Of a stretch of DNA of 64,000 nucleotides, positions 15,010 to 18,000 are shown one piece after another. Numbering within the stretch: the stretch's first letter is position 1; each line of letters opens with the position of its first letter. This DNA comes from Callorhinchus milii (Eukaryota). Location of the stretch: assembly GCF_018977255.1 (NCBI RefSeq), contig NW_024704742.1, positions 99,140,001-99,204,000 on the forward strand. Direction: 5' to 3'. The notes beneath the pieces are model-generated. The model worked only from the letters and a program-made list of their open reading frames with translations. It ran no database searches and was not told the origin of the DNA. The translations under genes were made by a program, and so were the position numbers.

Positions 15010-18000
15010 GTGAGGGCGGGGGGGGGGGGGGGGGGGGGGGGGGGGAGGGGGGGTGTGGGGGGGGGGAGGGGGTGTGGAGGGGGGAGGGTGTGTGTGGGGA
15101 AGGGGAGTGTGGCGGAGGGGTTGTGGGGAGGGGGTGTGGGGGGTGTGTGTGTGGGGGGGGGGGGAGGGTGGGGGGGGAGGAGGGGGGGGGAGGGGGGGGG
15201 TGGGGGGGGGGAGGGGGTGGGGGGGGAAGGGGAGTGTGGGGGAGGGGGTGTGGGGGGTGTGTGTGTGTGGGGGGGGGAGGGGGTGGTGGGGGGGGGTGTG
15301 GGGGGAGGGGGGTGTGGGGGGAGGGAGGCTTTCTGTTCAACTCTCGACCACGTCAAAGCTATTTATGGGCTGTGCTCAGCTGGGCTCTGGGCTGAGCTGA
15401 GGTGAGCTGAGCTGTGGGCTGGGCTCTGGGCTGTGGGCTGAGCTGGGCTGTGGGCTGAGCTGGGCTGAGCTGGGCTGTGGGCTGAGCTGGGCTGTGGGCT
15501 GAGCTGGGCTGAGCTGGGCTGTGGGCTGAGCTGGGCTGTGGGCTGAGCTGGGCTGTGGGCTGAGCTGGGCTGTGGGCTGAGCTGAGCTGGGCTGTGGGCT
15601 GAGCTGGGCTGAGCTGGGCTGTGGGCTGAGCTGGGCTGTGGGCTGAGCTGGGCTGTGGGCTGAGCTGGGCTGAGCTGGGCTGTGGGCTGAGCTGGGCTGT
15701 GGGCTGAGCTGGGCTGTGGGCTGAGCTGGGCTGTGGGCTGAGCTGTGGGCTGAGCTGGGCTGTGGGCTGGGCTGAGCTGGGCTGTGGGCTGGGCTGTGGG
15801 CTGAGCTGGGCTGTGGGCTGGGCTGTGGGCTGGGCTGGGCTGAGCTGGGCTGTGGGCTGAGCTGTGGGCTGTGGGCTGGGCTGAGCTGGGCTGTGGGCTG
15901 AGCTGGGCTGTGGGCTGAGCTGTGGGCTGTGGGGTGAGCTGGGCTGTGGGCTGAGCTGTGGGCTGAGCTGGGCTGTGGGCTGAGCTGAGGTGGGCTGAGC
16001 TGGGCTGTGGGCTGAGCTGGGCTCTGGGCTGTGGGCTGAGCTGGGCTGTGGGCTGAGCTGGGCTGAGCTGTGGGCTGGGCTGAGCTGGGCTGTGGGCTGA
16101 GCTGAGCTGGGCTGAGGTGGGCTGAGCTGGGCTGTGGGCTGAGCTGGGCTCTGGGCTGTGGGCTGAGCTGGGCTGTGGGCTGAGCTGGGCTGAGCTGTGG
16201 GCTGGGCTGAGCTGGGCTGTGGGCTGAGCTGAGCTGGGCTGAGGTGGGCTGAGCTGGGCTGTGGGCTGAGCTGGGCTCTGGGCTGAGCTGGGCTGTGGGC
16301 TGAGCTGGGCTCTGAGCTGGGCTGAGCTGGGCTGTGGGCTGAGCTGGGCTGGGCTGTGGGCTGAGCTGGGCTGTGGGCTGAGCTGGGCTGTGGGCTGAGC
16401 TGAGCTGTGGGCTGTGGGCTGGGCTGAGCTGGGCTGTGGGCTGAGCTGGGCTGTGGGCTGAGCTGGGCTGGGCGCTGGGCTGTGGGCTGAGCTGGGCTGT
16501 GGGCTGGGCTGGGCGCTGGGCTGTGGGCTGGGCTGTGGGCTGAGCTGGGCTGAGCTGGGCTGTGGGCTGAGCTGGGCTGTGGGCTGAGCTGGGCTGGGCT
16601 GAGCTGGGCTGTGGGCTGAGCTGGGCTGGGCTGAGTTGGAGGGGATCATTCCCTTTGGAAACCTGTTGCTGTCTCATTGCAGAGCAACGCGTAGGAGAAC
16701 TCACTCTTTATTCGTTGCTGTTGCAAATGACCTGTCTGATTTGTGTACTTGCTTTCTCATTTGGTTACTTGGTCACTGAGATCGACCTCGATCAGACAGC
16801 TTTAAACAAAACAATAAGGTTTTAACCACTGAAAACTTTGACTTGGCATCCTGACACACACTGCTGGTGGTGATGATGTGACATGTTTACCCTGTATTGA
16901 CCAGGTTCAGTCTGATCGTGTACAGTATCGACTGGTTTTGCTGGTGGGATTAAATGTGAAGGTTGCAATGTGAACTACAGTGTTAAACCTCCTGAGGTTA
17001 CAGAATGAGGTTGGATTTGTTAGCATTCAAGTCGAGTTTGTGTCGTAACTTGTTGCTTGTTGTTTTGTAACTTGCCTTTGTTCAATCACAGACCAGTGCC
17101 ACCTTTTTCCTAAACAAGTTCCGCAAACTTTTTGAGACAGAGAGAGAAACTATTTTTTACACACGTCTGTAGCATTTGATCCACTTTTAAAAGCAGTTAT
17201 GTTCAGAACGTCCTAAGCATTTGTTTGTGAGTTCCTGACTAAGCCATAGCAGGAAAAAATCCAGGAGCCAAAGCAACACTGGTGAGAGCATTTAACAGCT
17301 GCAAAAGAACCATCCACTGGCATATAATAATAACAATGATTAATAATAATAATAATCCTTGCATTTGATATAGTGTTTTTCACGTCGGGAGGACGTCCCA
17401 AAACACTTCACAGAACACACTGTAAAGTGAATTGACTGTATATTTGTGGGCGAACGCAGCAGCCAATTGCGCACAGCAATGTCCCACAAACAGTCATAGA
17501 TTGAAAATGACCAATTTATTATTGTTTTGTTTTGGAGGGATTATTATTAGGGGTGTGGAGTAAGGAAACTTGCCCAAAGTCTCGCCCTGCCTGGAATTGA
17601 ACTCGGGTCTCTCACTTGCAAAGCGAGTGCTCTAACCACTGAGCTATAGGACTCCAATTATAGAGATTATAATTGATGTAGCTCCTATAATGTCAACCAT
17701 TTCAAAGTTATTTACAGTAAGTATTGTTACATGTAGTTTGCGGCACTGCTTTAGCTACAGGCAAACCAGACAGCTGTCTCGGGCGCCGATAGCCAAAGAC
17801 AGCAGATTTCTGGGAGAAGTGATTTAATGCTCCACTGGAGAAATTGAGACAGGTGGGGCCTGCAGTGAGTGAGCTGGCTACCGCGGATGGCAATTTAAAG
17901 CAAATTCATCTTTTAAATTAAAGCTAGAACTTCTAAGGGGGTGGCCCACTGAGGTTTTGCAGCAGATTGTCTTGAGGGGTTTCTGTTAGTTGTGTATTGT

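Follow-up and report, generated by a model that had tools for sequence, protein, structure and literature searches.

In 1982, switch-like sequences were reportedly described in Drosophila, sea urchin, and yeast. Mammalian S-mu, S-alpha, and S-epsilon, as characterized in the accounts we drew on, are intronic regions of a 1–10 kb class that lie behind a promoter and a splice donor and combine GAGCT and GGGCT words with dense AGCT and a non-template strand that is rich in G (PMC2660918, PMC5904731, PMC9827813). A synthetic counterpart made of nine 80-bp repeats (720 bp, 46% G, four AGCT per 80 bp) and placed behind five G clusters is reported to form R-loops and to support switching in CH12F3 cells (Zhang et al. 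2014, PMC4245955). The IgH 3′ regulatory region is presented as holding repeats that are switch-like yet not canonical switch regions; B cells transcribe them, and they undergo recombination with S-mu (PMC4000994). Outside the immunoglobulin genes, maternal 45S rDNA of zebrafish, an animal without class switching, is described as carrying a switch-like repeat region of ~1.1 kb that is over 70% like human switch regions and shows length variation in long reads (Breit et al., bioRxiv 10.1101/2020.01.31.928739). For sharks, reviews describe immunoglobulin loci without switch regions (PMC4279169, PMC8201067).

Here, we examined a switch-like array in the first intron of ALDH7A1, within a 64-kb stretch of DNA that we call the window and to which all coordinates refer. 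The array is undescribed in the literature searched, a set that leaves out most subscription and old papers. The features of the locus are as follows:

14460–14814, forward strand: CpG-enriched 5′ region, putative promoter and 5′ UTR of ALDH7A1 (CpG o/e 0.60 and GC 63% over 14460–15010)
14815–15009, forward strand: ALDH7A1 coding exon 1, 65 codons, matching vertebrate alpha-aminoadipic semialdehyde dehydrogenase
15010–15015, forward strand: putative 5′ splice donor of intron 1, GTGAGG, from the sequence and from the protein match, which stops at 15009 and restarts near 19131
15014–15328, forward strand: G-rich low-complexity tract, 315 bp, 80% G, with 28 clusters of at least four G; predicted R-loop initiation and G4 zone
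15367–16635, forward strand: switch-like minisatellite, 17-bp period, units GGGCT, GAGCT, and GGGCTGT, about 77 periods
15984–16285, forward strand: higher-order 127-bp duplication within the array, in which 175 bases starting at 15984 recur exactly at lag 127
19131–19184, forward strand: ALDH7A1 exon 2, bounding intron 1 on its 3′ side, from tblastn and from run X5, where it is deeply covered and joins exon 3 across a GT..AG intron

The codons of exon 1 match human ALDH7A1 structures (E 4e-13), and tblastn placed further exons of the gene on the forward strand up to about 41600. In run X5, which is putatively RNA, exons 2 and 3 were covered to a depth near 270–300, against about 0–21 in unique intron bins, and were joined to each other across a GT..AG intron. 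Because the exons from 19131 to about 41600 all lie on the forward strand, the G-rich strand of the array is the non-template strand, as an initial annotation of this DNA had proposed. That annotation also placed the array just downstream of a promoter, a first exon, and a splice donor; exon 1 and the GT at 15010 bear this out, and the promoter is a prediction from CpG and GC content. Two in-frame ATGs, at 14815 and 14902, lie 29 codons apart in exon 1, and human structures start at the second, an arrangement compatible with a mitochondrial and a cytosolic start, as in the human gene. The exon-1 frame stays open through the G tract until a stop at 15403–15405, and a donor-like AG/GTGAG is present at the start of the array (15400–15407), but splicing from it would not keep the frame of the assembled exon 2. 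Upstream, PHAX (4580–9904, reverse strand) and ALDH7A1 are arranged head to head. The first PHAX exon, at about 9728–9904, sits in a CpG island (9400–10040, o/e 1.2), and the two genes are about 5 kb apart as measured to ALDH7A1 exon 1, with LINE-like remnants between them.

The array starts 357 bases past the exon-1 donor and is 1269 bp long (~1.3 kb). Recounting bore out the position and content originally given for it, with 73 GAGCT, 144 GGGCT, and 74 AGCT words at 15367–16635. An AGCT roughly every 10–20 nt had also been noted, and 57 of the 73 intervals fall in that range (mean 17.0), with 40 of the 73 at exactly 17. On the sense strand, G makes up 667 of 1269 bases (52.6%), and the GC skew is +0.49. 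The description of the array as almost entirely GAGCT and GGGCT holds at the level of bases, 85.5% of which belong to these two words, but not at the level of units: the period is 17 bp, and 69 of the 224 units into which the array was parsed are 7-mers (GGGCTGT 53, GAGCTGT 8, GGGCTCT 6, and GGGCGCT 2). Eight unit types were recognized, with 85 GGGCT, 65 GAGCT, and 53 GGGCTGT followed by 21 units of rarer variants. Units follow one another as GGGCT-GAGCT-GGGCTGT 38 times, where 2000 unit shuffles gave 5.9 (at most 14), Tandem Repeats Finder scored period 17 at 1289 (77.2 copies) versus 717 for period 5, and the longest pure pentamer run does not exceed 30 bp. The basic unit is 17 bp, GGGCT-GAGCT-GGGCTGT, and the array is not a pure pentamer array. 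A 14-mer of this unit has 65 matches in the window, every one of them inside the array, where 0.03 would be expected and at most two were seen in each of 100 shuffles; no second array of at least three units lies elsewhere in the 64 kb.

Minisatellite VNTRs are defined by a head-to-tail unit of 10–60 bp. With its period of 17, the array has such a unit, and it shares with GC-rich minisatellites the interspersed variant units and the higher-order duplication; it is set apart from them in that its unit happens to carry AGCT and GGG. The ordered units and the exact 175-base repeat at lag 127 are marks of stepwise tandem duplication, and the 127-bp duplication is recent. A derivation of the array from an amplified exon-1 end or donor was rejected, as the score of 28 for the best alignment between exon 1 and the array was reached in 135 of 500 dinucleotide shuffles and in 8 of 611 other windows. 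Open frames of 428–443 codons run across the array on the minus strand, which we regard as a by-product of a stop-free repeat.

Compared with mammalian switch regions, the array shows the likeness to S-mu-type DNA that had been claimed for it, in its tandem GAGCT and GGGCT words, its AGCT density, its G-rich non-template strand, and a length within the 1–10 kb class. The GGGGT pentamer of S-mu is not a component in the same sense, since it occurs once in the array; four-G clusters account for 1 of 147 G clusters, against the GGGG/GGGGT enrichment ascribed to switch regions (PMC4245955). As compared by description, the 17-bp period with its 7-mer and the near absence of GGGG are both unlike the mammalian regions. 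The proposed parallel to a promoter–I exon–donor–S layout is weak: the exon in front is not a non-coding I exon but encodes the N-terminus of an enzyme, and the layout is common to any intron-1 repeat. Also unlike mammalian switch regions, the array belongs to a metabolic gene, with PHAX upstream, and does not lie upstream of an IgH constant-region gene or have a partner array in the window. No immunoglobulin gene was found in the window, which beyond 42 kb was judged from the ORF list alone, and no exact RSS was found in its 64 kb. Given the coding exon, the non-immunoglobulin gene, the near absence of GGGG, and the lack of a partner array or RSS in the window, the array is not a switch region.

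The other described systems resemble the array in part. Like the IgH 3′ regulatory region repeats, it is switch-like without being a canonical switch region, though those repeats are located in the IgH locus itself (PMC4000994). It is close in size to the zebrafish rDNA region and likewise outside the immunoglobulin genes; as compared by description, the zebrafish region consists of CCAG tetramers, is paired around the rDNA, and is proposed to excise circles, whereas the array is single and intronic (bioRxiv 10.1101/2020.01.31.928739). The synthetic CH12F3 switch regions share with it a zone of G clusters followed by a G-dense, AGCT-rich repeat, and the array lies above the tested values (PMC4245955), with a length of 1269 bp, a G content of 52.6%, and an AGCT density of 4.7 per 80 bp, preceded by 28 clusters of at least four G. 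The synthetic regions are described as functioning only within the IgH locus (PMC4245955), while the array is natural. Judged by these values, the array would likely be capable of switch-region activity once transplanted into IgH. A CH12F3 assay would not settle its function in fish, because fully synthetic G-rich AGCT repeats already switch there (PMC4245955).

Predictions of DNA and RNA structure were made for both the array and the G tract that sits between it and the exon-1 donor; the tract includes a 28-G run, and its exact letters may be error-prone. The G4Hunter-type mean was 2.86 for the G tract versus 1.05 for the array, in which 21% of windows reached at least 1.2, and canonical G4 patterns numbered 32. 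The G tract is predicted to be the stronger candidate for G4 and R-loop formation, with predicted G4 support that is strong for the tract and moderate for the array. Allowing G4 on one 120-base piece brought a gain of 1.8 kcal/mol as DNA and none as RNA. When folded as DNA, a 300-base piece of the array gave z values of −4.0 and −5.7 for the two strands, each better than 200 of 200 shuffles, and for the RNA of the array at 15435–15734 long hairpins rich in G-U are predicted (−189 kcal/mol, z −13). By this folding model, the pre-mRNA may be double-stranded at these positions, not G-quadruplex. R-loops at the array are plausible, since its length and its densities of G and AGCT all lie above those of a synthetic switch region that works in mouse cells (PMC4245955). 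A re-implemented R-loop sequence rule (one model) flagged 14945–17430 along with nine other places in the window and was not counted as evidence, such predictors being advised against in the source on synthetic regions (PMC4245955).

In our view, the array is probably a G-rich minisatellite with a 17-bp unit, likely expanded at its present site through replication slippage and unequal exchange, likely without an immune role, and presumably switch-like in appearance by convergence. A neutral VNTR was the fallback of the initial annotation, and it too is supported. As for mechanism, AGCT and GGCT cores would pair, single strands would fold back, and slippage would thereby be favored. When ALDH7A1 is transcribed, the G tract and the G-skewed array would favor R-loop formation, much as happens at many CpG-island promoters; the array would presumably be spliced out as part of intron 1, and whatever damage AID did to it in lymphocytes would be incidental. 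Evidence against this reading comes from the quantitatively strong likeness to switch DNA, the permissive orientation, and the G-cluster tract in front. If neutral, the array is an example of switch-like DNA produced by ordinary repeat growth, and it weakens arguments from likeness alone.

The convergent origin that had been suggested for this likeness is supported by the occurrence of the same pentamer register in bacteria, as well as by the non-immunoglobulin host gene. A 24-base pure GGGCT/GAGCT word was found at 20 loci in named bacterial genomes, in arrays of 25–135 bp (3 of 20 at least 90 bp), and at 35 metagenome loci, in arrays of 20–182 bp (6 of 35 at least 90 bp), with no matches in viral contigs. 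To our knowledge, bacteria have no AID, so the GGGCT/GAGCT register expands without it. As there are only 102 possible pentamer classes, a match on this register is not rare. That kilobase arrays of this kind are common is unsupported: none of the 55 bacterial and metagenome loci reached 400 bp, a looser gap rule applied to two of them giving 355 and 373 bp, and the doubled 17-mer had no matches in the viral, metagenome, and prokaryote contigs, three collections that hold few vertebrate sequences.

An array of neutral origin could now be an AID off-target or fragile site, with an R-loop running from the G tract through the array, AGCT deaminated on both strands in lymphocytes, and mutation and internal deletions as the outcome. 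We consider this unlikely, as we do the corresponding proposal that the locus is a natural, transcribed, switch-grade substrate hit by AID in the lymphocytes of a lineage equipped with AID yet devoid of switch regions. The sequence values of the array lie above those of a functional synthetic switch region (PMC4245955), but no simple motif set is reported to predict AID off-targets (PMC9827813). There are 32 canonical G4 patterns, though with a mean of 1.05 and 21% of windows at 1.2 or above the G4 support is modest; ALDH7A1 is spliced in the putative RNA of run X5, yet the strong self-pairing predicted for the transcript would compete with R-loop formation. Cartilaginous fish are described as having AID-type hypermutation, and fish AID as able to drive switching in mouse cells (PMC4279169, PMC8201067). 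In the register as assembled, which is silent on the somatic cells where AID would act, 70 of 74 GAGCT slots are intact, four read GAGGT, and none carries C>T; three of the four GAGGT slots are copies within the 127-bp duplication. With no second array in the 64 kb and AGCT cytosines uneroded, the window gives no support to AID targeting, to fragility of the site, or to a dispersed family. Were AID nonetheless to hit the array, it would be a living model of how an ordinary minisatellite can turn into a switch region, and it would serve as an endogenous readout of switch-type breaks by cartilaginous-fish AID. Such action would show whether sequence and housekeeping transcription suffice for targeting in the oldest antibody-bearing lineage, and would bear on how switch regions first evolved.

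It is very doubtful that the G tract and the array are kept as a cis-regulatory element of ALDH7A1, acting as a GC-skewed zone of pausing or R-loops along the downstream edge of its CpG island. Their position fits, and a G-skew behind a CpG-rich promoter is a feature that the array shares with GC-skewed first introns next to CpG islands; in human genes, skew at this edge is reported to correlate with Pol II pausing (PMC4617957). The recent internal duplication, on the other hand, fits turnover better than constraint. Another proposal is a dispersed satellite family with copies at or near IgH clusters, where they would serve switching from cluster to cluster. Unconventional switching of this kind is described in nurse shark (PMC4279169), and shark loci are described as showing AID-linked switching between clusters (PMC4279169, PMC8201067), but the same reviews describe shark loci without switch regions and there is no other copy within the 64 kb, and we hold this origin to be highly improbable. 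The least credible proposal is an assembly artefact that accounts for all or most of the array. The G tract in front of it is of low complexity and contains a run of 28 G, and no independent record spanning the array was seen. Its internal pattern, however, is orderly: rare variant units recur in register at a lag of 127, as errors would not produce. In addition, a contig from run X1 reaches 30 letters beyond the array edge at 16636.

This contig came from a comparison with public runs that covered only the 3′ flank of the array (16636–19450, 30 bins). Two runs of the same organism label matched 30 of 30 flank bins, with single-base differences from the window and from each other. The X1 contig, a single one of 759 letters, spans 16636–17364 in addition to its 30 letters past 16636, and we infer that its end marks the point at which a contig built from 31-mers would run into a repeat and break off, which is consistent with the array. 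Shares of 0.46–0.49 in runs X1–X4 were discarded as proof of the array, because the unique flanks, which hold 60% of the distinct 31-mers, suffice to give them. Run X17, from another organism, matched 3 of 30 flank bins, all through simple repeats, and yielded no orthologue.

Some of the bacterial and metagenome loci have features of their own. The two loci re-measured under the looser rule, L005 (1–360) and L002 (560–940), are degenerate G-rich pentamer arrays of about 355–373 bp within other satellite-like DNA. Both matches are CpG-poor and were checked as vertebrate switch regions, and their flanks proved to be other satellite-like DNA. In Actinoplanes sp. DH11, perfect GGGCTGAGCT decamer arrays run off contig ends at L043 1001–1137 and L041 1–125, and are perhaps one longer array that broke the assembly. 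Finally, a metagenome contig with a 97-bp pentamer array carries an ORF (L024 806–2128, reverse strand) that we presume to resemble a viral terminase-type ATPase.
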